The notes under the pieces are model-generated. The model had not been told where the DNA came from and did not search any database. It saw nothing but the letters and a program-made list of their open reading frames with translations. The position numbers were made by a program, and so were the translations under genes. Positions 1,077 through 15,975 of a stretch of DNA of 64,000 nucleotides are shown one piece after another (position 1 is the stretch's first letter; each line of letters opens with the position of its first letter). Source of the stretch: an uncultured Gemmatimonadales bacterium (lineage in GTDB: Bacteria > Gemmatimonadota > Gemmatimonadetes > Gemmatimonadales > GWC2-71-9); the NCBI GenBank assembly GCA_963798915.1, contig CAWCVB010000006.1, forward strand, positions 288,001 through 352,000. The letters are read 5' to 3'.

Positions 1077-1268
1077 TCACAGTGCTATTCCAAGTGGAAA
1101 CAAGACGCAGTAACCGGCCACGAGCAACACAGCGGCGGCAGTTGGATGGCCGGCGGACAGCACGGCGTACCCGGCGATGAGTGTCAGAACGGCAGCCGCG
1201 AGGAAGAAGATATTCCTGCGGGCCAGCAAGCGCTGCGGGGCCATTGCACCAGCCTGCGGTTTGGTCAT
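1077..1268 (-). CDS. Small two-TM membrane protein (DUF3098-like)
   Basis: 63 aa; RRNIFFLAAAVLTLIAGYAVLS and AAVLLVAGYCVLFPLGIAL are two hydrophobic helices. Confidence 0.7.
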   Translation of the reverse strand: MTKPQAGAMAPQRLLARRNIFFLAAAVLTLIAGYAVLSAGHPTAAAVLLVAGYCVLFPLGIAL

Positions 1269-1277
1269 AAGCGGTTG

Positions 1278-1306
1278 ACGCTAAACACTGTGGCCCGGCT
1301 GGTCAA
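1278..1306 (-). promoter_or_regulatory. Candidate sigma70 promoter for the small membrane gene and tRNA-Val
   Basis: TTGACC (1306-1301), 17-nt spacer, TAGCGT (1283-1278). Confidence 0.4.
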
Positions 1307-2174
1307 GTTCATCGTCGTCTGGAGGCGCTGGCCAGCCGATATCAAGGGCGGCGCGCCGAGGCCCATCCAGGACCCGGCGGATCCACGAGGCGATGACAAC
1401 CGCCACGGCAACCAGCAACCAGAGGCCGCCCAGCGTCAGCCATCCCAGCACGCCGTAGCGACGGCGCACGTCCCGCTGCCAAGCCACTCCGAACTGGCCC
1501 GGCGTGAGTCCGGTCGTCCGCCGGAGCGCCGTATCGAACGGCTCCCCGGAGGCCAGCAAGGTCAACAATGGCTCCAGCGAGTGCTCCGGGTGACGCCGGG
1601 CCAGGTCCATCACAGCGGTCATGGCCAGTCCATAGGCAAGCGATGCGTCGGCCTCGGTTCCCTGCAGGCCGCGGTTCAGGTTGTCGAGGTCCGGGATGCG
1701 CCCGCGCAGGACGGCGAGGTTGATGCCAACCGCATCCATTCGGCTCCACTCACCAGCCGCGTAGGCGGCGTAGCCTTCGTCGAACCAGCGGGGAACGCTC
1801 GAATGGATGGCGCGGCGCAGCGCCAGGTGCGCCAGCTCGTGTCTCAGCGTGGCTTCCGTCTGGCCCGCGTCGGCGCGGATCAGAATGGTGCGGCTGGATG
1901 GCAGCGCGACACCCGCGCCCCACGACGGTGCACGCCCGCTGGTATAGCGCTGCATGGTCGACTGGTCCGGCACCACGATCAGGCGGATCGGTCCCGGGTC
2001 GCGCCTGCCCAGGCCGGGCCAGGTGTGGACATGATCCGCCTCGTCGCCAAGCTGGAGGGCCAGCGGCATCTCGCGCGCCGTCGCGACCACCGTGACCTGA
2101 CCGACCTGTGCTGCCTGGGGCTGAGGCGGCGCCTGAACGAACGGGCGAAGAGCGATGAGCGCGAGTGCGCTCAG
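1281..2174 (-). CDS. Peptidase MA-like (gluzincin) metalloprotease with C-terminal TM anchor; start uncertain
   Basis: LRHELAH (HExxH) followed by VPRWFDEGYA; C-terminal hydrophobic helix and basic tail. Start placed at the CTG overlapping the upstream stop; the ORF track gives 2342. Confidence 0.8.
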   Translation of the reverse strand: MSALALIALRPFVQAPPQPQAAQVGQVTVVATAREMPLALQLGDEADHVHTWPGLGRRDPGPIRLIVVPDQSTMQRYTSGRAPSWGAGVALPSSRTILIRADAGQTEATLRHELAHLALRRAIHSSVPRWFDEGYAAYAAGEWSRMDAVGINLAVLRGRIPDLDNLNRGLQGTEADASLAYGLAMTAVMDLARRHPEHSLEPLLTLLASGEPFDTALRRTTGLTPGQFGVAWQRDVRRRYGVLGWLTLGGLWLLVAVAVVIASWIRRVLDGPRRAALDIGWPAPPDDDELDQPGHSV

Positions 2175-3055
2175 GAACGCGCGGAACGCGGGATGGTCCC
2201 TCCGGCAGCGGCGGTGTCCAGCATGTCCTTGCACCGCTTGCCCCACTGATTGAATCGGTTGGCGCGATGGCCCTCGGTCCACGACTCGGTGGCGCCCTCG
2301 CGATCGCCGGAAAGCCACTGCGCGCGTCCCAGCTCGTACCACGCCTCGATCAGGTTGGGTCCCAACTGGAGGGTCTTGCGGAAGAAGGCCTGGGCGTCCT
2401 CGAACATCTCGCGCTCGAGATAGACCAGGCCCAGGTAGTAGTGGGCGTAGAGCGTGGCCTTCCGGTCGTTGTTCAGCCGAATGGCCTTGGAAAGATGTTC
2501 GATGGCTTCGCCGAAGATCCGCTTCTTGAGGCAGATGTACCCGACATTGATCCGGGCCAGCGCATTGGCAGGTTCTGCCATCAGCACCCGCGAGAATGTC
2601 GCCAGCGCCTCGTCATAGCGCTCGTCGAGCATCTCGGCCCAGCCCAGGAGGGACTGCGCCTGCGTGTCACCCGGTGCGAGTTCCAGGGCACGCTCGAGCG
2701 CCTGCACGGCGCCGGCATGGTCCCCCAGCGAAATCAGGCTCCAGCCCTTTTCAATAAACGTCGACGCACCGATATGATCCGAGTGCACCGCGGGCCTGGC
2801 TCCCGAGAACTGCGGTGGTTGTGCCCCATCCTCCGTCGCGCCTGAGGCGACCTGTTTGTAGCGCTCAACCAGCGCGCGGAGGTCGTCCTTCAGCCGGCTG
2901 AGCTCGCCCAGGGCCGCGTCAACCTCTCGGTACAGCGAAATAATGTCGCGCTTGAGGCGCTCGCGAGTGTCCACCCCGCCAGCCTCGCCAAGCCGCGCCT
3001 CCACCTCGCGATAGCGGTCACGATACATCGCGGCCGGGCCAGGTCGATCGGTCAC
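2171..3055 (-). CDS. TPR protein with N-terminal coiled coil
   Basis: About 5 TPR units (e.g. AWYELGRAQWLSGDREGA); heptad-like N-terminus; GTGA overlap with cheW. Confidence 0.85.
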   Translation of the reverse strand: MTDRPGPAAMYRDRYREVEARLGEAGGVDTRERLKRDIISLYREVDAALGELSRLKDDLRALVERYKQVASGATEDGAQPPQFSGARPAVHSDHIGASTFIEKGWSLISLGDHAGAVQALERALELAPGDTQAQSLLGWAEMLDERYDEALATFSRVLMAEPANALARINVGYICLKKRIFGEAIEHLSKAIRLNNDRKATLYAHYYLGLVYLEREMFEDAQAFFRKTLQLGPNLIEAWYELGRAQWLSGDREGATESWTEGHRANRFNQWGKRCKDMLDTAAAGGTIPRSARS

Positions 3056-3513
3056 GTTCCGGCCCGCTGCAAGGTGACGCGTTCGTCGCCGCTGAAGAGC
3101 CGACGGGCGTTGAGCAGCACGACGGTCTGCTCTCCGATATGCGCAACCCCGCTGATGTACTCGGCGGCGAGGCCGCGCACCAGCGGCGGCGGCGCCGCAA
3201 TCACTGATGCGTCCACCCGCACGACCTCCCGCACCTGATCGACCACCACGCCAATTCGATCGCGCTCGACTGTGATCACGATGACGCGGGTGTCCTCGCC
3301 CAGCTCCGCCGGTACGTCGAGGCGCTTGCGCAGGTCCACCACCGGAATGACCCCGTCTTCGAAGGGGAGGACACCCTCGAGAAAGGGAGGGGCCTTTGGC
3401 ACGGTCGAGGGCCGCTCGTATCGAAGGATCCGCTCGACCTGCAGGATGTCAAACCCGAAGTCCTGCTCACCGACACGGAAAGTCACCAGTTGCACGTCAT
3501 CGCCGGAGATCAT
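3052..3513 (-). CDS. cheW: Chemotaxis coupling protein CheW
   Basis: QLVTFRVGEQDFGFDILQVERI, VPKAPPFLEGV, IPVVDLRKRL, IGVVVDQVREV. Confidence 0.95.
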   Translation of the reverse strand: MISGDDVQLVTFRVGEQDFGFDILQVERILRYERPSTVPKAPPFLEGVLPFEDGVIPVVDLRKRLDVPAELGEDTRVIVITVERDRIGVVVDQVREVVRVDASVIAAPPPLVRGLAAEYISGVAHIGEQTVVLLNARRLFSGDERVTLQRAGT

Positions 3514-3932
3514 AGCCGACCCATTTCAAAGAGGCGCGCGCTCAACGCCGCAAGATCGAGCAGGGGGAGCAATTCCTTGCCATGGCGAACCAACGCCGCC
3601 GCCCACGGTACGGCTCGATCAGGGGGCACGGGTAGCGACTCGCCACGCTGTACGACTTCGGCATCATCGACTTCGAGGCACAGGCGCCTGCCCTCGACAG
3701 TCACCACAATGGCGGTGGAGGCCACGTCGGCAGGACACCGCTGCCCCGCCAGCAATGCCGCCAGATGAACCACGGGCAGGACCGCGCCCCGCATGGTCGC
3801 GACTCCGCGCACCGCCGGCTCGAGGCTGGGGACCGCAGCAACCGCACCCGGCACGGTCACCGCTTCCAGATGCTCCACCGGAAGCCCGATGGCGCGACCG
3901 CCAGCGTGCACCACCAGGAACTGCGTCATCAT
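3510..3932 (-). CDS. cheW: CheW-domain protein (divergent)
   Basis: [39 protein letters not shown]. Confidence 0.88.
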
Positions 3933-5005
3933 GAAGCCAGGCGGGTGAGACTGGCGTCGAGGACGGCCGCAATCCGCTCCACCGCAAGCACGTAATCCGC
4001 GCCACCGCTCAACCGCGCCGCATTGGGCATGCCATCAATGACAGCGCTGGCCCTGTCCTGCGCAATCCCGATACCGCCCGCGTCATGAATGGCCCGCAAG
4101 CCTGCAGCGCCGTCCCGCCCCAGCCCGGTCAGCACGACGCCAATCGCAGCGGGGCCGAAATACTCCGCCAGCGTGGTGAAGAGCGGATCGGCCGCCGGTC
4201 GCACGCCCCAGACGGTGGGCGACTGATCGAGGGCAATGACCGGACCACCGTCTCCACTGCGCACCAGCATATGGTAGTCGCCCGGCGCCACATACGCCGT
4301 ATCCTCCAGCACCGGGCTTCCCTGCTCGGCTTCGACCACGGTGTAGCGGCTCTGTGTGGCGAGGCGCTCGGCCAGACTGCGCGTGAACTTGGGCGGCATG
4401 TGCTGCACGATCAGGATGGCCGCGTGACGGCCTCGAGTCAGGCGCGGGACGATCTCCGCCAATGCTCGTGGCCCGCCGGTGGAGGCGGCGATGCCCACGG
4501 CACATCGGGCCCGACCGGGCAGGGTGGTCATCGTCGACGGAGGCATCGCCGGTCGTATCGGGCGAGCCAGCATCGGCAGGCGGAGGATCTCAGCTTCGCG
4601 GGCCGCATAGAGGGCCGCAAGCACCCGCCGGCCGAATCGGCCGATGGCCTCCTGGCCTCGGTCCTCGTCCTTCGCGACAAGATCCACTGCACCGAGTTCG
4701 AGCGCTCGAATGGCCGCCGCGGTGCCGGCGCCGGCGTACGCGCTGACGACAACGATGGGCCGGGGCGACTCGGACATGATGTAGCCGATGGCGCCCAATC
4801 CATCGAGTTCCGGCATCTCCAGGTCCATCAGCACGCAGTCGGGTTCGAGGGCATGGACCTTCTCAAGCGCATCCAACCCGTTCCGCGCCGTTCCGCAGAC
4901 CCGGAACGCTTCTGATCCATTGACCACATCGGTCAGCAGCCGCCGAAAAAACGGGCTATCGTCCGCAATGAGGACGCTGGCCGGTTCAGAGTTGCGTGGT
5001 GCCAT
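3929..5005 (-). CDS. cheB: Chemotaxis methylesterase CheB (receiver + esterase)
   Basis: Receiver motifs VLIADDS and [10 protein letters not shown]; catalytic [19 protein letters not shown]. Start set at ATG 5005. Confidence 0.96.
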
Positions 5006-5471
5006 GTGACACCGAGGTGATTTCCACCCGGCCATCAGCCGCCCAGACACGCACCGTCCGGCCGTAGTCGCCCCCGACCGCTTCACCGATCAGCGGGATA
5101 CCATGCTGGGCCAGGACCTGGCGCGACGCCACCACGTTCCGTTCCCCCATCTGGATGGTGCCGGGCGCCGTCAATGACGCGAACATGCTCGCACCGCCCA
5201 CCAGGCGACCTCCAACACGCCCGGACCGGGCCCCGAGCGATGCCATCCCGCTGAGCAGCGCCGGCACCGCCTTCTGGGGCACCTTGCCAGGGCGGTCATC
5301 GCTTGGTCGCACGAGCGCCGGCGACGGCAGGAGCACGTGCGCGAGCCCGGCCACGTGGGCCACCGGATCGTACAGGATGATGGCGACACAGCTGCCCAGT
5401 CCGATGGTGACGAGCTCGTCATCGAGTCGGCCCACGCGCAGGTCGGCGACCCGCACCACGATGTCGCTCAT
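4986..5471 (-). CDS. cheD: Chemoreceptor glutamine deamidase CheD
   Basis: [35 protein letters not shown]. Confidence 0.95.
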
Positions 5472-6286
5472 TCCCGCCGCCGGTAGATGCGTTCACGGAT
5501 GTCCACCAGGTCGACCAGCTCACGGGCCGGGCCCAGCAGCGTCTCCACCTTGCCGAGCACCAGGATGCCATGTGGTGCAAGGCGCTCCACGAACAGCGAG
5601 AAGACCTGTTCCTGCAGGGGACGATCGAAGTAGATCACCACGTTCCGGCAAACAATCAGCTGATAGGCGGTGGCCAATGGGGTGGCCCGGCTCAGGTCCA
5701 GCTCTGCTACCGTAACGCGTTCGCGAATGGCAGGAACCACCGCGCGACCTGCCGCGTCAGGCACCGTATACCGATCCTGCAAATCCGCCGGCAGATCCTG
5801 GAACGCCTCCACACGGTAGACGCCCGCCCGCGCGCGCTCCATGGATGCGCGATCGACATCGGTCGCATGAATGGCTGCGCGACTGCTCCACTCCGGCCGG
5901 CCAGCGAGACGGCACTGTTCGGCGAACAGCATTGCCATCGTATACGGTTCATCGCCGGAGGCGCAGCCGGCACTCCACGCCAGCAGTCGCCCGGCATTCG
6001 CCTCCCACAGCGCCGGCAGAAACCGGCCCGCGAGTGCACTCCAGGTCTCGGGATTCCGGTAGAAGCGCGTCACATTGATGGTGAGCGCGTCCTTGAGGCG
6101 ATCCAACTCCTCCGGCTCACGCTCGACCAGCGCCCGATATTCGTCGTAGTCGCGGCTGCCACACGCGCGCATCCGCACCGCCACCCGGCGACGGATGCAC
6201 TTGTCCTTATAGGCATCGAGGGTCATCCCCACGGCTGATGAAACGGACCCAAGCAGCCGGGCGAAGGCCGCGTCGTCGGTCATCAC
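5468..6286 (-). CDS. cheR: Chemotaxis methyltransferase CheR
   Basis: LTINVTRFYRN, WSAGCASGDEPYTMAM, IVCRNVVIYFD. Confidence 0.96.
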   Translation of the reverse strand: MMTDDAAFARLLGSVSSAVGMTLDAYKDKCIRRRVAVRMRACGSRDYDEYRALVEREPEELDRLKDALTINVTRFYRNPETWSALAGRFLPALWEANAGRLLAWSAGCASGDEPYTMAMLFAEQCRLAGRPEWSSRAAIHATDVDRASMERARAGVYRVEAFQDLPADLQDRYTVPDAAGRAVVPAIRERVTVAELDLSRATPLATAYQLIVCRNVVIYFDRPLQEQVFSLFVERLAPHGILVLGKVETLLGPARELVDLVDIRERIYRRRE

Positions 6287-7902
6287 GAGGCAGCATCCAG
6301 CATGTCGAGGTTGGCCCGGGCGAGCTGATGCCCCGGATTGAGTTCCGCCGCACGTTGCCAGCAGCTGCGAGCCTGGTCGGTTTCGCGCCGCTTGAAGGCG
6401 ATGTTCCCCAGCTTGAAATAGAGGTCATCGCCGAGCTGGGGATCGAGCTTGGCCGCACGCTCATACATGCTCGCGGCCTCGTCGTAGCGGCCTGAGCGGT
6501 AGCACAAGTCACCCAGGTTCTTGGAAATCTGCGGCACGCCAGGCTCATCGGATAACGCTGCCCGGAGCAGCAGTTCCGCGCCGGCTACATCGCCATCGTG
6601 CTCCAGCATGACGGCGAGGTTGTTGCGCAGGATGGCGCTCGCGGGATGGGTCCGAACCCCTTCCTGGGCCACACTGAGGGCTGCGTCGGCACGATCGGCC
6701 GCGGCTGCAGCAAGCGACTGCGCCCAGTACCAGATCGCCGGCACGATGCCGTCCTTCAGCAACTCACGGGCGCGCGCCAGCCGGCTCTGGGCGGCTTCGG
6801 TGTCGCCGCGCCGCAATGCCAATACGCCCCAGCCCAGCTGGATCCGTGCATCTTCGCGGGCCCGCCCCGCCGCGTCCGCGAACACGCGCTCGGCCTCATC
6901 GAGCTGTCCGAGCTGCTCGAGTGCGATGGCCAGATCATGGAGCACCACCGGCCGGGGGCCGCCCTTCTCCAGGCAGTCGCGGAACGCCTGGGCGGCCTCG
7001 CTCCAGCGCGCCTGCCGCGACGCGATGAGTCCCAGGTGAAAGGGTGCCGCCGCCTCGGCCGGTCGCAGGTCGGCGACGCGCCGAAACTCACGCTCCGCTT
7101 CATCGAGCATTCCGGTCCGAAAGAACGCGACGCCCAGGTTGCGGTGCTCTTCCACCCGCGAGTCACTCGCGCGAGGCGCTGCGGCGGCACGCGACGAACC
7201 GGTGCGATGGGCGAAGCCGGCAGCGAGCAGGCCATAAATGGCCTTGCCGACCTGGAATTCCACCAGGCCGGATTCCTCCATGACCTGCTGCACATCACGG
7301 GTGCCGTCGAGAAGCGGCACGATCCGTTCCTGCTCGGCGCTGAGCGTCACATCGCTGTCGGCCACTCGCGATGGGTCAGCACTGAAGATGAGATCGAAGG
7401 TGGGAATCTTCTTCGCGATGAGACTCCACTCATCCACCCGTCGTGCCCCCTCGAGCAGGAGGCTCTCGGGATTGATGGAGACCAGGACATCCTGTTCCTC
7501 CGGACGCTCACCGGCCTCGAAGTTGAAGGTGCCGCTGCTCCAGGTGAACAGGAAATACACCGCTTCCTCGATTTGCAGCGCCACGAACTCCCGAAGCGCG
7601 TCCGGCGTGATGGCGCCGAGTTCGAGCAGTATCTGGCCAATGCGACGTTCCGGGCTGGCCGCCTGCTGGTCGATGGCTTGCTGCAGCACGTCCGCTGAGA
7701 GCCTGCCGTTGCGGACCAGCAGGTCCCCAAGCCGGTCACGCCGATTGACGATCGAGGCGAAGACGATGCGGCCGTCCTCGAAGTAGATGTAGCCGAAGTT
7801 CTGCCGGTCAGCCACGGCCAGGCAGCCGGAGCGTCGACCCAGCGCGAGCAGCTGGATGACATCCGGAAGACTCGCCTCGGACAGGCTTCCCTTGATGGCC
7901 AT
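6283..7902 (-). CDS. DUF4388 (PatA-N-like) protein with MshEN-like motif, wHTH-like segment and C-terminal TPRs
   Basis: [19 protein letters not shown]...GYIYFEDGRIVFA; ESLLLEGARRVDEW; many TPRs in the C-terminal half. Confidence 0.9.
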   Translation of the reverse strand: MAIKGSLSEASLPDVIQLLALGRRSGCLAVADRQNFGYIYFEDGRIVFASIVNRRDRLGDLLVRNGRLSADVLQQAIDQQAASPERRIGQILLELGAITPDALREFVALQIEEAVYFLFTWSSGTFNFEAGERPEEQDVLVSINPESLLLEGARRVDEWSLIAKKIPTFDLIFSADPSRVADSDVTLSAEQERIVPLLDGTRDVQQVMEESGLVEFQVGKAIYGLLAAGFAHRTGSSRAAAAPRASDSRVEEHRNLGVAFFRTGMLDEAEREFRRVADLRPAEAAAPFHLGLIASRQARWSEAAQAFRDCLEKGGPRPVVLHDLAIALEQLGQLDEAERVFADAAGRAREDARIQLGWGVLALRRGDTEAAQSRLARARELLKDGIVPAIWYWAQSLAAAAADRADAALSVAQEGVRTHPASAILRNNLAVMLEHDGDVAGAELLLRAALSDEPGVPQISKNLGDLCYRSGRYDEAASMYERAAKLDPQLGDDLYFKLGNIAFKRRETDQARSCWQRAAELNPGHQLARANLDMLDAAS

Positions 7903-9875
7903 CAGCGCCAGTCCTCGATCAACCGTGACGCGGGATCAGGCCAGTCCCCGATCATCTTCTCGCGATTCTGGGCAATCCCGGCCCCGCCATGGACCACGCC
8001 GCTGGATCGCACCATGGTCGAGCGGCGGCTGGATCCGCGTGTGCTCCCTCCCTCCAGCGCTTCGCGCGCAAGCAGCGCCGTCGGAGGCACACCGCGACTC
8101 TCAGCTGCGTGCAGCACCCGCTGCACCAGCCCCAGCGTGCTGCGCATCGAGTCGGCGGGGCGAGCCGCCACATAGGCCGCCAGTTCCGGATCCACCGCGT
8201 CGAGCTTGGCAGCCAGCAGACGTTCGACAGCGCGCTGCCTGAGCTCCCGGTCGGGTGAAGGCAGGTCAGCCACCAGCCCTCCCTCGAAGCGCGTCAGCAG
8301 GCGTGGTTCGATCCCGGACAGGTGGGCCGGCTGCACCCCGGCTGAAAAGACCATCTGACGGCCCTGCTCCTGGAATTCGTTGAACAACAGGAAGAGCTCT
8401 TCCTGGGACCGCTCCTTCCCTGCAAGGAACTGGATGTCATCCAGCAGCAGGGCATCGGCCCGCCGCCACCGGGCGCGCCAGCGCGGAACCGATTCCTGCT
8501 CGATGGCCGCGATCAATTCGTCCACGAACACCTGTGTGCTGGCGCACGCAACCCGCCGGCCACCCGCCGCGATCGCGTTGCCAACAGCATGCAAGAAGTG
8601 GGTCTTGCCATTCCCGCTCGGGCCGGCGATAACCAGCGGATTGTAGCGGGTGCCCGGTTCCTCGATGATGGCGCGAGCTGCCTGTACCGCCATGCGATTG
8701 CCCTGGCCCTCGAGGAAGGTGTCCAGGTTCCAGTGCGGGGAGGGCCCGGGTGGCGGCTCAGCCGCAGCCGCGGCGCGCTCCCGCAGCGCTTCCGCTGCCG
8801 CCAGCTGGTCCGGATTGCGGAGCACGGCGTCGCTGGCCAGGTCCGGTGCGAGATCCGCAACGTCGGCGTGGAGCACCCTGAGCCGTGCGACGTCACGTTC
8901 GAACGCAGCCAGTTCGGACGCCGGGTCCTCGGCCAGTTCCTGGTCGAGCAGCGCCGCCAGCCGGTCAACTCGATAGCCCTCTCCTTCCCAACGCAGCATC
9001 GCCTCGCCTATCCGGCGGCGCCATGACTCAACCTGCTCGGTGACCGTGGCCATGACGTCCTGAAGGAAGTCGGTGAACTCGTCTACCGGACCGGCGCCGA
9101 ACATCTCTCCGGCGACCGCGGGTACCGGCGCGCGCACAGGGCGCCGACCTGCGCTGCTCAGCTGCGCCGACGCCTCGCGGGCTTCCTCCGCGGTGATGGG
9201 AGCATCGCTCACGGCCTGCATCGCCGCGACGCGGTTCAGCGCGCCGAGCAGCTCGCGAACGCTCTCCGGCTCTGGCTCGGCGATGCCCTCCAGCACCGCG
9301 GCGGCCAGCTCCAACTGGCGCTGACCGGCGCGACGATGGAGGATCGCGACGCGCGTCTCGTAGTCGGGTATCCCGATGTCCACGACCAGTCCGCCCCCCA
9401 GCCGCCGCGCCAGGCGTTCATCCAGCGAGGGGATGTCGCCGGGCGGTCGGTCGCTGGCCAGGACCAGCTGGCGGCCGGCGGCGGCCATGGCATCGGTCAC
9501 CCGCAGGAGTTCGGCCTGCATTTCCCTCCGCCCGGCGAGGAACTGCACGTCGTCGAGCAGGAGCAGGTTCACTTCAAGCAATCGCCGGCGGTAGGCATCC
9601 CCACCACCGGACGCGATGGCCGCATGGAACGCCTCCAGGAACTCGTCGAGGGTCAGGTACTCCACCACCAGCTGGGCATTGATGGCGCGCGCGGCGTGGC
9701 CGATGGCGCCAAGGAGATGCGTCTTGCCGAGGCCGGGGCGCGCGTAGACGAACAGGGGGTTGTAGACCGCGCCGGGCGACTCGGCCACGGCGCGTGCCGC
9801 TGTGACGGCGAGCCGGTTCGCGCTGCCGACGACCAGCTCCTCGAACCGGAACTGCGGGGGAAGCTCGGCTGTCAT
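7902..9875 (-). CDS. DnaA/Hda-family protein with two AAA+ modules and no DNA-binding domain IV
   Basis: Module 1: [18 protein letters not shown]...LLLDDVQFL. Module 2: [18 protein letters not shown]...LLLDDIQFL. Confidence 0.92.
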
Positions 9876-10474
9876 CCCACGGCGCTTCCGGCTGCCAGCC
9901 GCCGCAAGACCTGCTCGGATATTCCCTTGAGCGTCTCGAACACCCCGCTGCCGTGAAGTGCGTCCGCCGGATAGCTGAGCACGTCGCGAAAATTCAGGGC
10001 TTCGTCCAGCGCCTCGCGAGACAGCACGAGGTCGGCCGGCAGATCCTGCTTGTTGTATTGCAGCACGACCGGCAGCGCCCGGATGTCCACGCCCTGCTCC
10101 AGGAGATTCTCCTGAAGGTTCTGCAGGCTCTCGAGGTTCTCGTCGAAGCGCGCAGCCTGGCTGTCCGCGACGAAGACCACACCGTCCGAGCCCTGCAGCA
10201 CCAGCTTTCTGGTGGAGTTGTAATAGGTCTGGCCCGGCACCGTGTAGAGCTGGAACCGGGTGGTAAAACCGCTGATCGAGCCAAGATCGATCGGGAGAAA
10301 GTCGAAGAAGAGGGTGCGATCGCCGTGGGTGGCAAGCGACACCATGCGCCCCCGCCGCCCCTCAGGCACCCGACCGAAGACGTACTGCAGGTTGGTCGTC
10401 TTGCCGGACCGTCCCGGTCCGTAATAGACAATCTTGCAGGTGATTTCGCGGGTCGTAAAATTGACGAGCGACAT
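9872..10474 (-). CDS. mglA: Small Ras-like GTPase MglA
   Basis: [40 protein letters not shown]. Confidence 0.96.
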
Positions 10475-10476
10475 GA

Positions 10477-10938
10477 TCAGCGTCCGAACAGCGCGTGCAG
10501 GCTGGCGTTGAGGTCATGTTCAAAATTTTCCGCCAGCACCGGTCCCTGGGGCGTCTCACGGGGCGCGGCGGCGGCGAGTTCCCGACAAAGGCGGCCGAAG
10601 AAGAGCTGCACCAGCCCGACACTGGTGTCATCACCGAATACGACGAGCCCGATCCAGCGTCCGCGCGGAGTGTCGAAAGCGGAGATGAACAGTCCATGCT
10701 CGGTGCCCTGGTGCACCAGTGCGCCAAAACCCGGCTCGCCCATGAGCCGCGCCACTTCAGACGTGGAGGCGACAATGCCGGCTCCGAGGGCCGACGCCGC
10801 CATGACATCGAGCGAGCGCGAAAAACCGTGTTGTGCCACCACCTGGCCCGCGGAGGTCATGAGCAGCACCAGTCGGGCCGAGGACTCGGACAGAAATGCG
10901 TCGAGCGGCTCTGCAACCCAGGGTTCGAGCGTGCGCAT
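10477..10938 (-). CDS. mglB: Roadblock/LC7 protein, MglB-like (probable GAP)
   Basis: [50 protein letters not shown]; directly upstream of mglA; ATG 10938 overlaps the upstream TGA. Confidence 0.85.
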
Positions 10939-11285
10939 CAGCCGAGGCCTCGCGCTACCTCGAGCATCTCCAACCGCGCGAGGCCCAGGTTGGCATCGCG
11001 TGACGTCACCGCCACCACCAGGATCTCGGCGCCAGCCGGCACCGCCAGCACGGAGCCGAATTCGGCGCGAAGGTGCACCAGCTCCGGAGCCGGCATGCCG
11101 GCGGCCCGCGTGGCTCGGCCCAGCCGCCCGACGAGGCTCGACGCCAGTGCGGCGATGGCCTGGCCGTCTATGCCGTCCATGAGGGAGTCGGCGACGACCA
11201 GCCCGTCGGGCGCGGAGACGAGCATCGCGCCTCGCACGCCGCGGATCCCGCTCACTCGATCGAGGGTCGCGGTGAGGTCGTTCAC
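10938..11285 (-). CDS. Roadblock/LC7 domain protein
   Basis: GVRGAMLVSAPDGLVV, AIAALASSL, DANLGLARLEM; GTG start in a GTGA overlap with GGAG RBS. Confidence 0.88.
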   Translation of the reverse strand: MNDLTATLDRVSGIRGVRGAMLVSAPDGLVVADSLMDGIDGQAIAALASSLVGRLGRATRAAGMPAPELVHLRAEFGSVLAVPAGAEILVVAVTSRDANLGLARLEMLEVARGLG

Positions 11286-12142
11286 GGCAATCGCTCCAGC
11301 CATCGACGCGCGGCTGCGGCTGCCCGTTCGGCGATGACCGCGAGCCGTCCGGCGGGCACGCTGGCATCGCGCTTCAGCAGCAGGACAGTCGAGTCCGATG
11401 GGGCGCTGAGATGAAGATTGCCGCTCCCGCATTCGGCCACGACGCTCTGCCACGCCCCGAGGCCCAGCAGCCGGGCGGTGCGCGCCGCCTCACGCTGCAC
11501 CCCTGCCAGATGCGCGGCCACCGCATCGCTCACGTCATGATTGGCGACGTCCCGAAGCCCGCCGCCCAGCCGCAGACCGCTCTGGTCCAGCAGGAGCAGT
11601 CCGTCCTGTGCACCGTCGAAGCCCTTGAAGAGCTCGTCCTCCGCGACGTGGCCGGCCGTCGGGGAATCGTCCTCCTCCAGTGAGAAGGGCACCGACGCCT
11701 GTTGGGTGGCCACCGTCGGCGTGCTGGCACCCGCCTCTTTCTGCGCCATGGCATCGCGCACCCGCTCGATGGCGCGGTCGAGTCCGGCCGACCCATGCTG
11801 CTCATGCGCCAGCTCCAGGTGCCGCAGCGCCCTCGGCAGATCATCGGCCCGGAAATACAGGAAGCCGAGTCCCTTGTGGGCGCCGAGATGCCCGGGATCG
11901 CTCTGCAAGGCATCCATCCATGCGTCGAACGCCGCTTCGCCATTGCCCAGATCGCTGTGGATGCGCGCAAGCAGGTCGTGCGCATCGGCCAGTGCTGGAT
12001 AGCGCTGGACACCCGCCACGGCCACCTTGAGCGCTGCAGCCGCCTGGCCGCGACGCCGGAGAGCCTCGCCCAATTCGAGGAAGATCAGGCTGCCGGGATC
12101 GGACGCCAGTTCGGCAGTCATGGCCCGCACTTCGTCAGCCAT
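11282..12142 (-). CDS. TPR plus Roadblock/LC7 fusion protein
   Basis: N-terminal TPRs (DPGSLIFLELGEALRRRGQ); C-terminal LLLLDQSGLRLGG...VAAHLAGV...VPAGRL. Confidence 0.82.
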   Translation of the reverse strand: MADEVRAMTAELASDPGSLIFLELGEALRRRGQAAAALKVAVAGVQRYPALADAHDLLARIHSDLGNGEAAFDAWMDALQSDPGHLGAHKGLGFLYFRADDLPRALRHLELAHEQHGSAGLDRAIERVRDAMAQKEAGASTPTVATQQASVPFSLEEDDSPTAGHVAEDELFKGFDGAQDGLLLLDQSGLRLGGGLRDVANHDVSDAVAAHLAGVQREAARTARLLGLGAWQSVVAECGSGNLHLSAPSDSTVLLLKRDASVPAGRLAVIAERAAAAARRWLERLP

Positions 12143-13289
12143 GTACCATCCTCGTCGCCTGGCTCAGCAGCCTGGCAGCCTCGCGCATCCTGTTCACCCA
12201 GCCCCCTTGCGCATCTTCATCGGGTGGACGCGCCGGCAGCCTGCTCCATGCGTCCCACGTCTCAATCGCCTCCTCGAAACGGCCATCTCCCGCCAAGGCC
12301 ACACCCAGCAGCCGTCTCGCGGCGGCGTCGGCCGGATCCAGGTCGGCCGCCTGGCGAAAAATGTCCACCGCATCCATGGGCCGCCCGAGTGCCAGCAGGG
12401 CCCGCCCGTGCATCACCAACGTTGCCACCTGCACGCCAGGGGAAGCCTGCCTGGCCTCTTCCACCGCCGCGAGCGCGGCTCGGGCATTGCCGGCGATCAG
12501 ATAGGCGTCGGCTCGCGCCAGCAGTTCGGCGATCTCGCCGCCGACCGCGTCCGGCACCTTTCCCTGTTGCGGATCCTGAAGCAGGATGACTCCTGCCGTG
12601 GCAAGGCCAAACAACGTCCGGGCCACGTCGAAGTCGGACCGGCGAACGGCAGCTGCGAGGTCGCGCACGTTCCGGGTTCCATCCACCGCCGCGAGTACTT
12701 CCCATTCCGCCGGATGGAGATCCATCGGTCCAGCATCGCCTCCCTCAGGCACGACGAGAGAGGGCACCACGTCGAGATGCGGGATCCTGGATTCGATCCG
12801 GCTCCACTCGTCGATGCGGCGTGCGGCTTCCATGAGCAGCGCTTCCGTCGGGATGCGCACCGTCGCCTGCGCCGGCACCGCCTCAAGCGGTGCTTCTGAG
12901 AATGAGAAATACCCCTCGGACCAGCCCATCAGCTCAAAAATGACTTCTTCGACCTGCACCCGCATCTGCCGCTCCAACTCGCGACGCGTGATGGCACCGA
13001 TCTCGACCAGCACGTCTCCGAGGCGCCGTTCATCCCCTGCCTGCTGCATGTCACGTGCGCGATGCAGGTCGGCTTCGGCCAGCTTCCCCATCCGGACCAG
13101 CACCCGTCCCAAGGGGTGGGGATTGCTCTGAATCTCCGCCGCAACGACAGCACCCTTGTCGAAGTAGACCGTCCCGCCATTCTGGCGAAGCTCGGATGTG
13201 ACGCGCAGCATGCCGGTCTTGCGGGCCAGGTCAAGCAGCTGGAACACATCGTGGATCCCGAGCTCGCGCAGCGGGCCTTCAATTGGCAT
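12135..13289 (-). CDS. Second DUF4388 protein with degenerate MshEN-like motif and TPRs
   Basis: MPIEGPLRELGIHDVFQLL...VYFDKGAVVAA; EALLMEAARRIDEW; C-terminal TPRs. Confidence 0.9.
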   Translation of the reverse strand: MPIEGPLRELGIHDVFQLLDLARKTGMLRVTSELRQNGGTVYFDKGAVVAAEIQSNPHPLGRVLVRMGKLAEADLHRARDMQQAGDERRLGDVLVEIGAITRRELERQMRVQVEEVIFELMGWSEGYFSFSEAPLEAVPAQATVRIPTEALLMEAARRIDEWSRIESRIPHLDVVPSLVVPEGGDAGPMDLHPAEWEVLAAVDGTRNVRDLAAAVRRSDFDVARTLFGLATAGVILLQDPQQGKVPDAVGGEIAELLARADAYLIAGNARAALAAVEEARQASPGVQVATLVMHGRALLALGRPMDAVDIFRQAADLDPADAAARRLLGVALAGDGRFEEAIETWDAWSRLPARPPDEDAQGGWVNRMREAARLLSQATRMVHG

Positions 13290-15975
13290 GGTCAGCGCCT
13301 CCCGCGGTCAGGATATGCTGGAGGTCACGGGCGGATCGCGCCCGGCTCCGCGCAATCGTGGCCAGCTCGGTGGAGGGCCCGAGCTGCACCACGCGCTCCC
13401 ACGCATCCACCGCAGCCGTGAACTGTCGTTCCCGCGCCAACGCGACGCCGCGATAGAAGAGCGCCTCCGTTTGCTCGGGCAGGAAACGAAGGATGCGGGC
13501 AAACGCCTCCAGCCCTTGAGCCGTCCGGCCATCATCGAGGAGGGCCCGCCCCAGCAGCAGCAATGCGTCAAATTCGTAGGGGTCCGCCGAGAGCATGTCG
13601 ACCAGCAGGGCCACGGCGGCCCTGGGCGATTCGGTGCGCCGCGCGAGGTCGGCCCGCCCCAGGGCCGCAACGGTGAACGTTGGCAGCAGATCCAATGCGC
13701 GGCCATAGGCGGCGTTCGCTGCCGTCCAGTTCTCGCGCTGCTCTTCCAAACGGGCCAGCTCCAGCCATACCTGCACCAGTCCCGCATCGACACGGAGGGC
13801 TAACCGGCATGCGTCGAGCGCAGCATCCACGTCACCCAGCTGAGAGCAGATGACAGCCTGCAGCTGGTAGAGTTCCGGTTGACCAGGCGAGACCGCCAGC
13901 GCACTGCGAACGGCCTGCAACGCGCCCTCGAGGTCGTCGCCCGCGAGCCGGGCCTTGCCGAGGGCCGTGAGCACTTCCCCGTCGTCGGCTCGGGCACGCG
14001 CGAGCGACTCCGCAACCGGAATCGCCTCTGCGCCGCGTCCGAGCGCCACCAGCGCACGGACCTCACCCAGCGTTGCGCGCCAATCGTCCAGCCGGACCGA
14101 GCGTGCCTGGCGAAACTGCTCCAGTGCTTCGCCGTGGAGGCCCCGGCGCGCATGGATTTCACCCAGCAAGGCGGCCACGGCGCCGGCGTCGGCGCCTCGA
14201 GCGCGGGCGCGGCCCACCTCGGCATTGGCCAACTCGAGCAATCCCTTGGTCGCGTAGTCCCGCGCCAAGGCAAGTGGATCCTCCTCGGCCGCCAGCTCGG
14301 GTTCGTACGGGACGGTGGTCGTCAATTCGGCGAACAGGTTATCCAGGGTGCCCGACTCGAAATCGAACTCGCCCGCGAGCAATTCCCCACCCACATCGCT
14401 GGTGAGTGGGGGCGCAATGGCAATCGTCGGGTCTTCGTACTGGAGGTCGAGCGCCAGCGTGTACTTCTGGGGGACATAGAACGGCTCCAGCTCGAGCGCG
14501 CGCTTGGTCTCGCGCAGCGCACCGTCGAAATCCCCAAGCTGGCTCATCGTAAAGCTCAGGTTGTAGTGCGCTGACGCCAGCGAATCCTCAGCTTCCACCG
14601 CACGTTGAAACGCCGTGCGGGCTTCGCCATACCGCTTCAGTTCCATCAGGACCAGTCCGACGCCATTCCATGCGATGGCGTTGCGCGGCTCCTCGGCCAG
14701 GGCCGAGCGATAACCTTCCAAGGCGGGCTGCAACTCATGCCGCTGGAAGTGGAGCAATGCCAGATTGAGCCGCACCGTAATGGGAACGTGCGGGCCCCGT
14801 GCGGCGCGCCGGAAGGTTGCGAGCGTCGCCTCCGCGGCCGGATCCTGAGCACGCAGCACGCCGAGATTGTTCCACGCGATCACATAGTCGGGATCGAGGT
14901 CGACGGCACGAAGATACGAAGCCTCAGCGACGTCGCGGTGGCCCAGCTGCTGCAGGCAGACGCCACGCTCGGACCACAGCTTGGGTGACTCGGGAAACTC
15001 GTTCACGAGCTGGTCGTAGAGCTGCAGCGCCGCTGCGAGTTCTCGCCGAAGCAGCTCCACCTCGGCCATGGCCTGCAAGGCGAGGCGCCGATCCTCGCCG
15101 GCATCCAGCGCCAGCCGGTACTCGCGCAGGGCCTCGCTGAAATAGCCCTTCTGGCGAAAGGCCAGGCCGAGATTGAAGTGCGCCAGCGCGGCGTCGGTCA
15201 CCGGTTGCGGCACCGCGCGCGCCTGGCCGCCCGCGCCGTTTCCGCTCGCCCCGTTGCGCTGCAACATGAGGTTGGTCTGCGCGCGCGCCAGCGCCGGATT
15301 CAATTCAATGGCCCGCTTGGCCGCCTGCCGCGCCAGGCCATGCTGGCCCATGTCGCCGTGGACGAAGGCGAGCAGGTAGTGCGCGTCAGCATACTCCGGA
15401 TTCCGGGCCACGGCGCCCTGGAGGGCAGCCAGGGCCGGCTCGTTCAATCCGCGGTTGTAAAGCGTCTCGCCGTAATAGAACAGGGCCACCGAACTGTCGG
15501 GATCGCGGCGACACGCCTCGGCGAACCATTCGGTGGCCTCCTCGACCCGACCCCGCGCCCGCTCGCTGAGCCCCAGTTGCACCAGCACGGCCACATCGTG
15601 CGGGTGCCGCGCGAGCAGCGCCTGAAACTCGTCGGCAGCAGCATCATGCTGGCCCAGCGAGGCGTAGGCGCGGCCGAGCTCCCAGCGCGCGTCTCGCTCG
15701 TCTGGATTGTTCCGGAGGCGACCCTGCAGTTCGGCGACCCGATGGTCGTAATGGCCACTGTCGCGATAGGCAATTTCGAGATTGGTCTGCGCGATGGTCA
15801 TGCGCGAGTCCAGCTCGAGCGCCCGCTGGAAGGCCGCCACCGCTTCGGGAATCAGTCCTTTGTGGTAGTAGAGCACGCCGAGGTTGTTGTGCGCCCCGGC
15901 ATCGGCGGGATCGATGCGCCGCGCGAACGACCGCAGTGCCGACAGGTCGTGTTCGGACAGTACGGGCGCAGGCAT
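13279..15975 (-). CDS. Large cytoplasmic TPR protein (898 aa)
   Basis: Many TPR consensus repeats (AHNNLGVLY, AWNNLGVL, AWNGVGLVL, AHYNLS); no signal peptide. Confidence 0.92.
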   Translation of the reverse strand: MPAPVLSEHDLSALRSFARRIDPADAGAHNNLGVLYYHKGLIPEAVAAFQRALELDSRMTIAQTNLEIAYRDSGHYDHRVAELQGRLRNNPDERDARWELGRAYASLGQHDAAADEFQALLARHPHDVAVLVQLGLSERARGRVEEATEWFAEACRRDPDSSVALFYYGETLYNRGLNEPALAALQGAVARNPEYADAHYLLAFVHGDMGQHGLARQAAKRAIELNPALARAQTNLMLQRNGASGNGAGGQARAVPQPVTDAALAHFNLGLAFRQKGYFSEALREYRLALDAGEDRRLALQAMAEVELLRRELAAALQLYDQLVNEFPESPKLWSERGVCLQQLGHRDVAEASYLRAVDLDPDYVIAWNNLGVLRAQDPAAEATLATFRRAARGPHVPITVRLNLALLHFQRHELQPALEGYRSALAEEPRNAIAWNGVGLVLMELKRYGEARTAFQRAVEAEDSLASAHYNLSFTMSQLGDFDGALRETKRALELEPFYVPQKYTLALDLQYEDPTIAIAPPLTSDVGGELLAGEFDFESGTLDNLFAELTTTVPYEPELAAEEDPLALARDYATKGLLELANAEVGRARARGADAGAVAALLGEIHARRGLHGEALEQFRQARSVRLDDWRATLGEVRALVALGRGAEAIPVAESLARARADDGEVLTALGKARLAGDDLEGALQAVRSALAVSPGQPELYQLQAVICSQLGDVDAALDACRLALRVDAGLVQVWLELARLEEQRENWTAANAAYGRALDLLPTFTVAALGRADLARRTESPRAAVALLVDMLSADPYEFDALLLLGRALLDDGRTAQGLEAFARILRFLPEQTEALFYRGVALARERQFTAAVDAWERVVQLGPSTELATIARSRARSARDLQHILTAGGADHAN

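Follow-up and report, generated by a model that had tools for sequence, protein, structure and literature searches.

Within a 64,000-nucleotide stretch of DNA from an uncultured Gemmatimonadales bacterium (the window), we found a gene for a tandem DnaA-type ATPase embedded in an operon of MglA/MglB polarity, PATAN-TPR and chemotaxis (Che) genes. The 657-amino-acid product, given the working name DnaA2x, consists of two copies of the AAA+ domain III of DnaA, a conserved helical domain between them and a conserved peptide at the C terminus. DnaA2x is not the replication initiator. As it is a fixed member of a polarity and chemosensory cluster, a replication module seems to have been re-used here for signaling.

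Domain architecture of DnaA2x

The ORF has the codon-position GC pattern of a real gene (0.78/0.49/0.82). Pfam recognizes Bac_DnaA (PF00308) in two stretches (E = 1.2e-91) and neither DnaA_N nor Bac_DnaA_C at E ≤ 0.01, in line with the first-pass annotation, which had described a tandem DnaA-type protein lacking domains I and IV. The ORF and every motif that it quoted are present in the translation (GSANRLA/GQGNRMA, YNPL, GLGKT/GNGKT, DDVQFL/DDIQFL, ERLARRL/PRLLTRF and SVRELLG/SMRSTLG, plus the C-terminal tail). The DnaA model TIGR00362 also matches in two stretches, the best of which aligns residues 3 to 242 with profile positions 102 to 341 of 437, so that only domain III is represented. Domain III begins at residue 5, and after module 2 only 46 residues remain, 25 of them disordered. 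The gene is divided as follows.

7902..9875, minus strand: DnaA2x gene (tandem DnaA-domain-III ATPase), ORF of 657 aa with an ATG start
9156..9863, minus strand: module 1, DnaA-type AAA+ core and lid, residues 5-240 (TIGR00362, alignment, Foldseek)
9084..9143, minus strand: disordered spacer, residues 245-264, 20 residues (pLDDT < 50, AF2 model)
8763..9080, minus strand: inter-module helical domain, residues about 266-371, ~105 aa (alignment, model)
8043..8741, minus strand: module 2, DnaA-type AAA+ core and lid, residues 379-611 (TIGR00362, alignment)
7965..8039, minus strand: disordered arm, residues 613-637 (pLDDT < 50)
7905..7964, minus strand: conserved C-terminal tail motif, residues 638-657, consensus REKxVWxWPxxxxRLIEE

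Each module closely resembles domain III of DnaA, at 41-42% identity to Bacillus subtilis DnaA by Foldseek. Against that protein, the alignment of module 1 is ungapped (residues 111-343) and that of module 2 (residues 112-342) has a single 2-residue gap, which implies that the helical insertion specific to initiators, located between strands 2 and 3, has been kept; the AF2 model has two helices between strands in each module (76-88/92-100 and 447-459/463-471). This insertion, together with Walker A, Walker B, the box VII arginine finger and sensor II in a DnaA-like arrangement, places DnaA2x in the AAA+ initiator/loader clade (DnaA, DnaC, IstB, Orc/Cdc6). The sites are K51 (Walker A), D108/D109 (Walker B), D142 (sensor I), R154/R158 (box VII) and R207 (sensor II) in module 1 and K424, D479/D480, R525/R529 and R578 (Walker A, Walker B, box VII and sensor II) in module 2, the arginine-finger match to B. 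subtilis R264 being taken from the alignments of both modules. Foldseek superimposes module 1 on B. subtilis DnaA (8bv3_A) with an E value of about 1.7e-20 to 1.8e-20, an rmsd of 1.8 over 232 columns and a TM score of 0.92 normalized to the target. The AF2 model of the whole protein has a pLDDT of 90.6 and a pTM of 0.56, so the relative placement of the modules is not confident and an intramolecular interface between them would be conjecture.

Conservation was counted over 98 distinct proteins of the family. In module 1, K51 is kept in 98, D108 in 98, D109 in 96 and R207 in 93, with the arginine finger R158 (79/98) and sensor I D142 (74/98) short of full conservation, and the module 2 counts are 95 for K424, 95 for D479, 92 for D480, 90 for R529 and 93 for R578. 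Judged from these counts, the catalytic motifs of both modules are under purifying selection. Decay of the ATPase motifs in orthologues, which would have spoken against the first-pass interpretation, is not seen in these counts (Walker A Lys in 98/98 and 95/98).

The region between the modules had been described as an acidic helical linker. It is indeed helical but is no mere linker, as the 20-residue disordered spacer, which varies in length and aligns poorly across the family, is followed by a conserved domain of ~105 residues with near-invariant positions (F270, G300, L306, L332, P355 and A361). Modeled alone, this domain is predicted to fold confidently (pLDDT, 93.5). It has no fold match in the PDB (best E value, 2.8), no match in NCBIfam and no usable match in the atlas, and it is conserved and family-specific. 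A methylation-site-like pattern ([ST]xx[EQ][EQ]) seen by eye in the inter-module helix is likely due to chance, the helix being rich in E and Q. The short C-terminal tail was correctly noted in the first reading, but it is a family hallmark and not an incidental add-on, with W645 in 94 of the 98 proteins, K640 in 93, E639 and P646 in 90 each, R651 in 85 and E654 in 80. It is retained even in a family subgroup with a decayed module 2.

Genomic context

All genes of the cluster lie on the same strand. The counts in the following list are loci of the Gemmatimonadota set described below.

18858-19361, minus strand: CheW (Pfam)
18464-18826, minus strand: CheY (Pfam; 16/16 loci reaching upstream to CheY)
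16618-18525, minus strand: CheA (Pfam; 16/16 loci reaching upstream to CheY)
15985-16605, minus strand: CheC/X (Pfam; 16/16 loci reaching upstream to CheY)
13279..15975, minus strand: TPR protein, 898 aa
12135..13289, minus strand: PATAN (DUF4388) plus TPR protein 1 (DUF4388, 7.9e-32)
11282..12142, minus strand: TPR plus Roadblock fusion (Pfam TPR families and Robl_LC7; 16/16 loci)
10938..11303, minus strand: Roadblock/LC7 gene, 121 aa (Robl_LC7, 37.2 bits; 7f8m_A, 1.6e-7; 28/36 loci)
10477..10938, minus strand: mglB, Roadblock/LC7, conserved 153-aa form (Robl_LC7; 16/16 loci reaching CheY)
9872..10474, minus strand: mglA, 200 aa (238 bits to Myxococcus xanthus MglA, 5ymx)
6283..7902, minus strand: PATAN (DUF4388) plus TPR protein 2 (DUF4388, 3.1e-38)
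5468-6286, minus strand: CheR (Pfam; 20/22 loci reaching the peptidase gene)
4986-5471, minus strand: CheD (Pfam; 21/22 loci reaching the peptidase gene)
3929-5086, minus strand: CheB (Pfam; 11/22 loci reaching the peptidase gene)
3510-3932 and 3052-3513, minus strand: two CheW (Pfam; each 8/22 loci reaching the peptidase gene)
2171-3055, minus strand: TPR protein (Pfam; 22/22 loci reaching the peptidase gene)
1281-2342, minus strand: Peptidase_MA_2 protein (Pfam; 22/22 loci reaching this gene)

By its sequence match, the gene upstream of DnaA2x is a true MglA. The mglB product matches the MglB model NF052242 (2.7e-9) under the model cut-off. The MshEN-related c-di-GMP-binding motif NF053729 is found above its cut-off of 38 in PATAN-TPR protein 2 (48.5 bits) and slightly below it in PATAN-TPR protein 1 (36.4 bits). 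No methyl-accepting chemotaxis protein (MCP) gene was detected by Pfam in the che/mgl cluster, and no type IV pilus or gliding genes were detected among the window ORFs scanned. The first-pass annotation had described the setting as coupling to mglA, which is right as far as it goes; the wider PATAN/TPR set, the three Roadblock genes and the Che pathway had been missed.

The overlaps that it had reported at both ends of the gene are real. The DnaA2x start and the mglA stop share 4 nt (ATGA; junction ...gtgggATGAcagcc), and the DnaA2x stop shares 1 nt with the start of the next gene (TGATG; junction ...cgcTGATGgcc). A promoter/terminator scan of positions 1-20000 gave 0 promoter-like and 8 terminator-like hits, the same as in shuffles (1.8 and 8.3), so the scan is uninformative.

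We mapped gene order in 36 loci from 34 Gemmatimonadota genomes, two genes each being split over two contigs; this number is a lower bound. The loci were collected with one peptide pattern from a 7-row alignment of the inter-module region, so the set is biased toward that motif. In all 29 loci with enough flank, mglA lies within 200 nt upstream and a PATAN-TPR gene within 200 nt downstream of DnaA2x, and 27 of 30 loci show the overlap between the DnaA2x start and the mglA stop. The lack of linkage to mglA in orthologues that would have counted against the first reading is therefore not seen, and DnaA2x shows conserved genetic linkage to both mglA and mglB. The order persists at DnaA2x identities down to 37-41%, despite the loss of CheB and CheW from some loci (kept in 11/22 and 8/22). 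As all loci come from one phylum and from a single-pattern search, part of the conserved order could reflect shared ancestry.

Family and relatives

The best 120 matches to DnaA2x are all 645-680 aa long and cover 100% of the query, and the family is a large one whose members, going by source labels, all belong to Gemmatimonadota. Among 34 representatives of the relatives scanned with Pfam, P0230 combines two Bac_DnaA domains with a receiver, P0187 and P0222 carry MshEN ahead of two Bac_DnaA domains, and P0247 and P0269 join TPR to Bac_DnaA. All of these fusion partners are signaling domains and none are replication domains, and they parallel the neighbors in the window (CheY, the PATAN proteins with the MshEN-related motif and the TPR proteins). 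The same scan detected Bac_DnaA_C in 20 of the 34, the canonical relatives. The one most similar to DnaA2x, P0211, has matches named Armatimonadota, Chthonomonadales and Capsulimonadales.

In the module tree, the first and the second modules fall into separate clades (SH-aLRT of 99 for both), and on this evidence the tandem arrangement is ancient and fixed. The tree has no outgroup, does not resolve the canonical DnaA backbone (with 32 of 78 inner branches left open) and omits five truncated second modules (P0175, P0191, P0230, P0205 and P0243). A table of a 2014 survey (PMC4316618), in its accessible part, gives a locus of Gemmatimonas aurantiaca T-27 as "PATAN>MglA>-PATAN>". The position corresponding to DnaA2x is taken there by an unnamed gene, which suggests that a cultured strain could serve for tests.

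Relationship to DnaA and Hda

DnaA2x shares the AAA+ fold and motifs of DnaA domain III (8bv3/8btg of B. subtilis, 2z4r of Thermotoga maritima and 3r8f of Aquifex aeolicus) in both of its modules. Unlike DnaA, it has two copies per chain, lacks domains I, II and IV, has a new helical domain separating the two copies, ends in a conserved peptide, and is encoded in a signaling operon and not beside dnaN. That it is not the replication initiator, as the first-pass annotation had concluded, follows from the absence of the N-terminal domain I and of the domain IV HTH and from the location of the gene in the che/mgl operon. Pfam detected no dnaN and no canonical dnaA within the 64-kb window, and no replication gene is linked to DnaA2x in the window or in the mapped gene order of the 36 loci.

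JGI sources nevertheless label family members "chromosomal replication initiator protein DnaA," and the whole protein exceeds the TIGR00362 cut-off (441.6 versus 343.9). That cut-off is passed only because two copies are summed, as single modules fall short of it (242.3 bits for module 1 and 202.3 for module 2). The conservation of the motifs across 98 proteins likewise argues against a decaying duplicate, and Gemmatimonadetes are listed, in the available text of PMC5109545, among the phyla with a dnaA-dnaN-recF-gyrB-gyrA replication operon, an indirect argument from other genomes. We therefore regard a real but unusual initiator, or a decaying duplicate of one, as extremely improbable. An assignment to Hda fares no better. 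Against the Hda model TIGR03420, the whole protein scores 169.2 with a cut-off of 194.8, and modules 1 and 2 score 86.4 and 89.1, well below their DnaA scores. Hda contains just one module (about 230-250 aa) and carries a clamp-binding motif at its N terminus. By inspection, DnaA2x is instead a tandem of 657 aa, and in its family only ~4 residues precede the LxP...F entry into domain III, which leaves no space for such a motif. Like Hda/HdaA, DnaA2x is an AAA+ protein derived from DnaA that lacks the DNA-box-binding domain; it differs in fitting the DnaA model better and in lacking a replication context.

These results bear on a coupling to replication, which the first-pass annotation had raised as a possible co-assembly with DnaA and in which DnaA2x would join or cap oligomers of canonical DnaA or stimulate its ATP hydrolysis in the manner of Hda, so that polarity or chemosensory signals would modulate initiation. 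Hda acts on DnaA through AAA+ interfaces and an arginine finger (regulatory inactivation of DnaA), and the similarity of both modules to DnaA domain III and their arginine fingers would suit such a role. The scores against the Hda model, the lack of space for a clamp-binding motif, the lack of linked replication genes and the exclusively signaling fusions in relatives all argue against it, and we consider this coupling improbable.

Two other comparisons were made. NtrC-type receiver-AAA+ ATPases work in a similar way, as signal-controlled AAA+ oligomerization switches, and P0230 has a receiver on the tandem core. They belong to another AAA+ clade, so the likeness is one of functional logic only, and DnaA2x lacks their sigma-54 interaction motif and HTH. 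A role in antiphage defense was rejected, as PADLOC returned only generic P-loop matches (DrmD, 23.8 bits; mad8, 18.3 bits), with no stretch of DnaA2x passing singly.

Possible partnership with MglA

The first-pass annotation had proposed a scaffold or effector for MglA, which fits the synteny and the translational coupling; binding itself is only weakly predicted. The modeled complex of MglA (with GTP and Mg) and DnaA2x scored 0.34, with 0.00 for the best control, and a pass at this level is rated as more likely to be false than true unless the pairing was already probable. In the calibration, 116 of the 157 solved complexes attained the mark, as did 2 of the 215 mismatched pairs; only 18 of the 157, but both of the passing mismatches, did so with scores of ≤0.60. 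Unlike the calibration, our run used custom alignments and riding ligands. At least 58% of contacts recur between runs, the partner pLDDT is at least 79, and no interface was returned.

Linkage of PATAN proteins to MglA/MglB is noted in the accessible text of PMC4316618, which, with its supplementary Table S2, names no AAA+ or DnaA-type partner there. MglA effectors and PATAN regulators that steer type IV pili or polarity are described in the portions available of PMC7519303, PMC7668184 and bioRxiv 10.1101/2021.06.11.447907. The M. xanthus TPR protein SgmX and the Synechocystis PATAN response regulators follow the same neighborhood logic (MglA/MglB plus TPR plus PATAN), and the same portions of these three sources mention no AAA+ or DnaA-type partner. 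In a literature search, no paper was found to connect MglA, PATAN or a Che cluster to an ATPase of the DnaA type.

Proposed role and alternatives

We propose, with about even confidence, that DnaA2x is a non-replicative, ATP-driven oligomerizing switch or scaffold of the MglA/PATAN/Che module. It would be the dedicated AAA+ ATPase of a Gemmatimonadota signaling operon that joins the MglA/MglB polarity switch, additional Roadblock proteins, PATAN-TPR proteins with c-di-GMP motifs and a Che pathway. With two ATP-binding modules per chain, each with an arginine finger and the initiator-type helical insertion, the ATP-bound modules would stack head to tail, both inside one chain and across chains, to give an open, DnaA-like oligomer acting as a platform. 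The inter-module helical domain and the REKxVWxWP...RLIEE peptide on its flexible arm may recruit partners encoded by neighboring genes, with MglA-GTP, PATAN-TPR or other TPR proteins as candidates. ATP hydrolysis would reset the assembly, and the output would be to control a machine for polarity or motility, in keeping with what MglA does elsewhere.

A DNA-linked role is conceivable, as module 2 retains the single-stranded DNA (ssDNA) contact residues of DnaA. In B. subtilis DnaA these are I190, K222 and T225 (bioRxiv 10.1101/2022.03.18.484894, available text), and their equivalents in module 2 are I455, K487 and S490 by alignment. Over the 98 proteins, these positions hold I in 60 (plus V in 7), K in 58 (plus R in 5) and T in 39 plus S in 24. 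In module 1, two of the three are replaced (position 84, H in 52 and R in 17; position 119, M in 47 and T in 8). A pure protein scaffold would not need the residues kept in module 2, and their retention counts against reading DnaA2x as such a scaffold. Going by the alignments, they are the only hint of a DNA-related role, and through them DnaA2x might assemble on nucleic acid or the nucleoid and so position MglA/Che complexes. This DNA-bound platform, for which the lack of an MCP gene in the cluster also speaks, would have a possible analogue in the Frz system of M. xanthus, whose nucleoid-bound FrzCD arrays are described in the accessible part of PMC5716589 as a chemosensory pathway of the cytoplasm, acting on MglA polarity with DNA as its scaffold. 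FrzCD, however, is an MCP that binds DNA via a basic tail, and DnaA2x is an AAA+ ATPase with putative DNA binding. The replaced contacts in module 1, the lack of a double-stranded DNA-binding domain and the position of the contact residues in conserved helices, where structural reasons may explain their retention, make us regard the platform as rather unlikely.

More speculative still, and in our estimate slightly less probable than the coupling to replication, DnaA2x could be the array-forming core of a chemosensory pathway whose cluster contains no receptor gene, in which an ATP-dependent filament of the DnaA type, perhaps assembled on DNA via module 2, replaces the receptor lattice. Some chemoreceptors tether CheR and CheB by means of a C-terminal pentapeptide. 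The arm with its aromatic motif (VWxWP...RLIEE) might similarly tether CheR/CheB or the TPR/PATAN proteins, and MglA-GTP and c-di-GMP would gate assembly. If so, DnaA2x would be a new kind of signaling scaffold derived from a replication-initiator module and might connect the state of the chromosome directly to cell polarity.

Domain III of DnaA is known as a replication machine, and Hda is its replication-bound regulator. DnaA2x adds a phylum-wide and well-conserved family in which this domain has been duplicated, origin recognition has been lost and a helical domain and a docking-type tail have been gained, the duplicated module being fixed inside an MglA/Roadblock/PATAN/Che operon. Its systematic misannotation as "chromosomal replication initiator protein DnaA" can cause errors when origins are predicted or genes counted in Gemmatimonadota genomes. 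Should the switch or scaffold role that we propose be true, the initiator-clade AAA+ fold would have a second career in signaling, and MglA-type polarity control would gain a class of partner that is absent from the papers found.

The DnaA2x gene and its product

The ORF listing of the window gives the gene for DnaA2x, a tandem DnaA-domain-III ATPase, as follows:

7902..9875 (-), DnaA2x, 657 aa

We consider it a real gene, as its GC content by codon position (0.78/0.49/0.82, in a window of 66-68% GC) fits one. Each motif that the first-pass annotation had quoted for a tandem DnaA-type protein is present in the translation, and its expectation of two Bac_DnaA matches was borne out by Pfam (E = 1.2e-91, in two stretches), with neither DnaA_N nor Bac_DnaA_C matched in the same scan. 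The NCBIfam model TIGR00362 also matches twice, and the best stretch covers profile positions 102-341 of 437, which corresponds to domain III only. The overlaps described at both ends of the gene were seen as an ATGA junction between the mglA stop and the DnaA2x start and a TGATG junction at the 3' end. The upstream neighbor is a true MglA, scoring 238 bits against that of Myxococcus xanthus (PDB 5ymx).

The two modules lie as follows in the protein:

Residues ~5-240, module 1, DnaA-type AAA+
Residues ~379-611, module 2, DnaA-type AAA+

Scored singly, each is a much closer match to the DnaA model than to the Hda model (242 versus 86 bits for module 1 and 202 versus 89 bits for module 2). Bacillus subtilis DnaA aligns with module 1 free of gaps (residues 111-343) and with module 2 with one 2-residue gap (residues 112-342). 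An AlphaFold2 model made with 75 family sequences has a mean pLDDT of 90.6 and a pTM of 0.56, the predicted domains being individually confident and their placement relative to one another not. Its Foldseek matches are DnaA domain III structures, including 8btg_C (E = 1.7e-20) and 8bv3_A (rmsd of 1.8 over 232 columns), and residues 245-264 and 613-637 are modeled as disordered.

The region between the modules had been described as an acidic helical linker, but residues ~266-371 form instead a conserved helical domain, in which F270, G300, L306, L332, P355, and A361 hardly vary and which is predicted to fold confidently when modeled alone (pLDDT of 93.5). This domain had no match in a PDB fold search (best E = 2.8) or in NCBIfam, and no usable match in an atlas search. 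The protein ends, after a 25-residue disordered arm, in the motif REKxVWxWP...RLIEE, which by sequence comparison ranks with the most strongly conserved segments of the family (E639 in 90, K640 in 93, W645 in 94, P646 in 90, R651 in 85, and E654 in 80 of 98 proteins).

Conservation of the ATPase motifs

Motifs were counted in a nonredundant set of 98 family proteins. Searches supplied 75 of them and complete genes at genome loci another 27, of which 4 duplicates were dropped.

Conservation of ATPase residues in the two modules of DnaA2x (number of proteins, n = 98)
Walker A Lys: module 1, K51, 98; module 2, K424, 95
Walker B first Asp: module 1, D108, 98; module 2, D479, 95
Walker B second Asp: module 1, D109, 96; module 2, D480, 92
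Sensor I Asp: module 1, D142, 74; module 2, not conserved (A 39, S 14, G 12, D 10)
Box VII first Arg: module 1, R154, 80; module 2, R525, 82
Box VII second Arg: module 1, R158, 79; module 2, R529, 90
Sensor II Arg: module 1, R207, 93; module 2, R578, 93

Decay of the motifs among orthologs, together with a missing linkage to mglA, had been named in the first-pass annotation as a result that would speak against its reading; apart from sensor I of module 2, the residues counted are largely kept across the family, a degree of conservation that indicates selection on these motifs. The arginine finger of B. subtilis DnaA, reported as R264 in a preprint (bioRxiv 10.1101/2022.03.18.484894), maps by alignment to R158 in module 1 and R529 in module 2. 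A small subgroup (P0175, P0191, and P0194) has lost the Walker A motif and lid of module 2 and keeps the C-terminal tail WxWP...RL[IV]E. The decayed-module-2 sister subgroup also takes in P0190, P0205, P0230, and P0243, which carry other C-terminal extensions, a receiver domain among them.

Family and range

The protein was searched against 5.8 billion proteins. The best 120 matches are all 645-680 aa long, with a query coverage of 100% and identities of 58-100%, the 100% match being the window's own protein. Where a source names them, the entry is "DnaA/Hda family protein" or "DnaA ATPase domain-containing protein," assigned to Gemmatimonadales or Gemmatimonadota except for a single "Bacillota" bin (P0071), and the JGI label of family members is "chromosomal replication initiator protein DnaA." In a separate search of 50%-identity representatives, 34 of the best 150 matches align end to end in a single stretch, with identities as low as 32-35%. 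P0169, which has diverged furthest among these end-to-end relatives, is labeled Gemmatimonadetes, and its own relatives Gemmatimonadaceae.

A genome scan with the inter-module domain found at least 36 loci in 34 genomes, a lower bound, as the scan ran on one peptide pattern only. The titles of 34 of these loci name a gemmatimonad, while one (L002) is labeled Limnocylindria and one (L007) Acidimicrobiia. As both have the same gene order and their proteins are 75% and 53% identical to that of the window, they are probably mis-binned contigs.

Prokaryotic small GTPases were surveyed in 2014 (PMC4316618); that survey assigns the MglA of Gemmatimonadetes to Group 1 and mentions PATAN proteins close to some mglA genes. 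Its Table S2 gives the Gemmatimonas aurantiaca T-27 locus GAU_1409 as "PATAN>MglA>-PATAN>", with an unnamed gene between MglA and PATAN, the position of DnaA2x in the window; this gene may be a DnaA2x ortholog in a cultured strain. Our search of the full-text literature found no publication on a DnaA-type ATPase linked to MglA, PATAN, or a Che cluster.

The operon and its conservation

DnaA2x lies in a tightly packed operon on the minus strand (window positions 1281-19361). It is preceded, in order, by genes for CheW, CheY, CheA, CheC/X, an 898-aa TPR protein, PATAN-TPR 1, a TPR-Roadblock protein, a Roadblock protein, MglB, and MglA, and followed by PATAN-TPR 2, CheR, CheD, CheB, two CheW, a TPR protein, and a Peptidase_MA_2 protein. 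Three of these genes are detailed here:

12135-13289 (-), PATAN-TPR 1; NF053729 at 36.4 bits, just below the cutoff of 38
10938-11303 (-), Roadblock/LC7 protein of 121 aa, between the TPR-Roadblock gene and mglB; Robl_LC7 at 37.2 bits
6283-7902 (-), PATAN-TPR 2; NF053729 at 48.5 bits, above the cutoff of 38

The 121-aa Roadblock gene, matched in 28 of the 36 loci, brings the Roadblock-domain proteins of the operon to three. NF053729 describes an MshEN-related c-di-GMP-binding motif, and its matches fall inside the PATAN domain, which suggests that c-di-GMP may be an input to the module. The Che genes of the cluster code for CheA, CheY, three CheW, CheC/X, CheR, CheD, and CheB. As no MCP signaling domain was found in any of the window ORFs scanned, the methylation enzymes must act on an unconventional substrate or on one whose gene lies elsewhere.

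The linkage to mglA claimed in the first-pass annotation holds across the loci found. Where the upstream flank spans 700 nt or more (29 loci), mglA is always at most 200 nt upstream of DnaA2x, and the mglA stop coincides with the DnaA2x start in 27 of 30 loci. Likewise, where the downstream flank spans 1700 nt or more (29 loci), the PATAN-TPR gene always follows within 200 nt. The 16 loci that extend to CheY all have the full set of eight upstream genes. In the 22 loci extending to the peptidase gene, we found CheR in 20, CheD in 21, and the TPR protein and peptidase in all 22, but CheB in only 11 and each CheW in only 8. These counts show that the core order survives both the loss of flanking genes and the divergence of DnaA2x (37-41% identity). 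Losses of CheB or the downstream CheW genes are seen at L014-L017, L019-L022, L024, L025, L027, L028, L030, and L031; genomes lacking CheB and the two CheW still keep DnaA2x, PATAN-TPR, CheR/CheD, the TPR protein, and the Peptidase_MA_2 protein.

Elsewhere, the window contains two paralogous genes for a TMEM260-like protein O-mannosyltransferase, at 25156-27543 (-) and 62913-63998 (+), and a gene for SelA (selenocysteine synthase) at 58273-59631 (+). In a 633-aa ORF at 38517-40418 (-), the enolase domains start only at residue 211, and the extended stretch ahead of them is probably an artifact of choosing the first start codon.

Module phylogeny and fused relatives

The tree comprised 81 domain III rows (20 canonical DnaAs, family modules, and other architectures, with five truncated second modules excluded). 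Family module 1 (25 rows) and module 2 (18 rows) each form their own clade with an SH-aLRT of 99, so the tandem was in place before the family diversified, and the modules evolved as separate units. The stem of the module 2 clade is the longer one in this unrooted tree, whose backbone lacks resolution. Neither clade takes in the modules of P0169 and P0180, which lie beside MshEN- and TPR-fused forms.

Of 34 representatives scanned with Pfam, 20 are canonical (Bac_DnaA plus Bac_DnaA_C). The others include the following fused architectures:

P0230: two Bac_DnaA plus receiver
P0187, P0222 (proteins of 1876-1990 aa): MshEN plus two Bac_DnaA
P0247, P0269: TPR plus Bac_DnaA
P0227, P0235: Bac_DnaA plus DUF835
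P0195: Bac_DnaA plus zinc ribbon

Receiver, MshEN, and TPR are also the kinds of domains encoded by the neighbors of DnaA2x in the window, and their fusion to DnaA domain III points to a functional tie of this module to signaling rather than replication.

Proposed role

DnaA2x is very probably a member of the MglA/Roadblock/PATAN-TPR/Che module of Gemmatimonadota. Within it, the best-supported reading, to which we give an even chance, is that DnaA2x would act as an ATP-driven oligomerizing switch or scaffold with a nonreplicative function. Direct binding to MglA is a tentative addition. It has weak support from the predicted complex of the two proteins with GTP and Mg, which scored 0.34 (runs of 0.33, 0.34, and 0.35; best control, 0.00); the runs share at least 58% of contacts, and the partner pLDDT is at least 79. 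The score passes a mark that 116 of 157 solved complexes had attained, along with 2 of 215 mismatched pairs; however, only 18 of the 157 passed at 0.60 or below, together with both of those mismatches, and our job, with its own alignments and riding ligands, differs from the calibration setup. By the tool's rating, a pass at this level is more often false than true for a pair that was not a likely one beforehand, and it is the fixed adjacency and coupling of the genes that raise direct binding to a possible, if not the favored, case.

A switch or scaffold anchored to DNA appears unlikely. The single-stranded DNA contacts of B. subtilis DnaA, given as I190, K222, and T225 in the same preprint (bioRxiv 10.1101/2022.03.18.484894), correspond to I455, K487, and S490 in module 2, where the 98 proteins have I in 60 (V in 7), K in 58 (R in 5), and T in 39 or S in 24. 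Module 2 would thus look more DNA-competent than module 1, whose equivalents are H84, R116, and M119 (position 84, H in 52 and R in 17; position 116, R in 66; position 119, M in 47, with T in only 8). The chemosensory array of M. xanthus, described in PMC5716589 as nucleoid scaffolded and working with MglA, could serve as a precedent by analogy. Coupling to replication is less probable still, as the fusions in relatives point to signaling, and the view of the first-pass annotation that DnaA2x is not the replication initiator was judged sound. A search aimed at the canonical DnaA of Gemmatimonadota returned Armatimonadota-type proteins; indirect support for a canonical dnaA comes from PMC5109545, where Gemmatimonadetes are listed among the phyla with a dnaA-dnaN-recF-gyrB-gyrA operon. 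The switch or scaffold proposed here would be the work of an uncharacterized and widely misannotated family.
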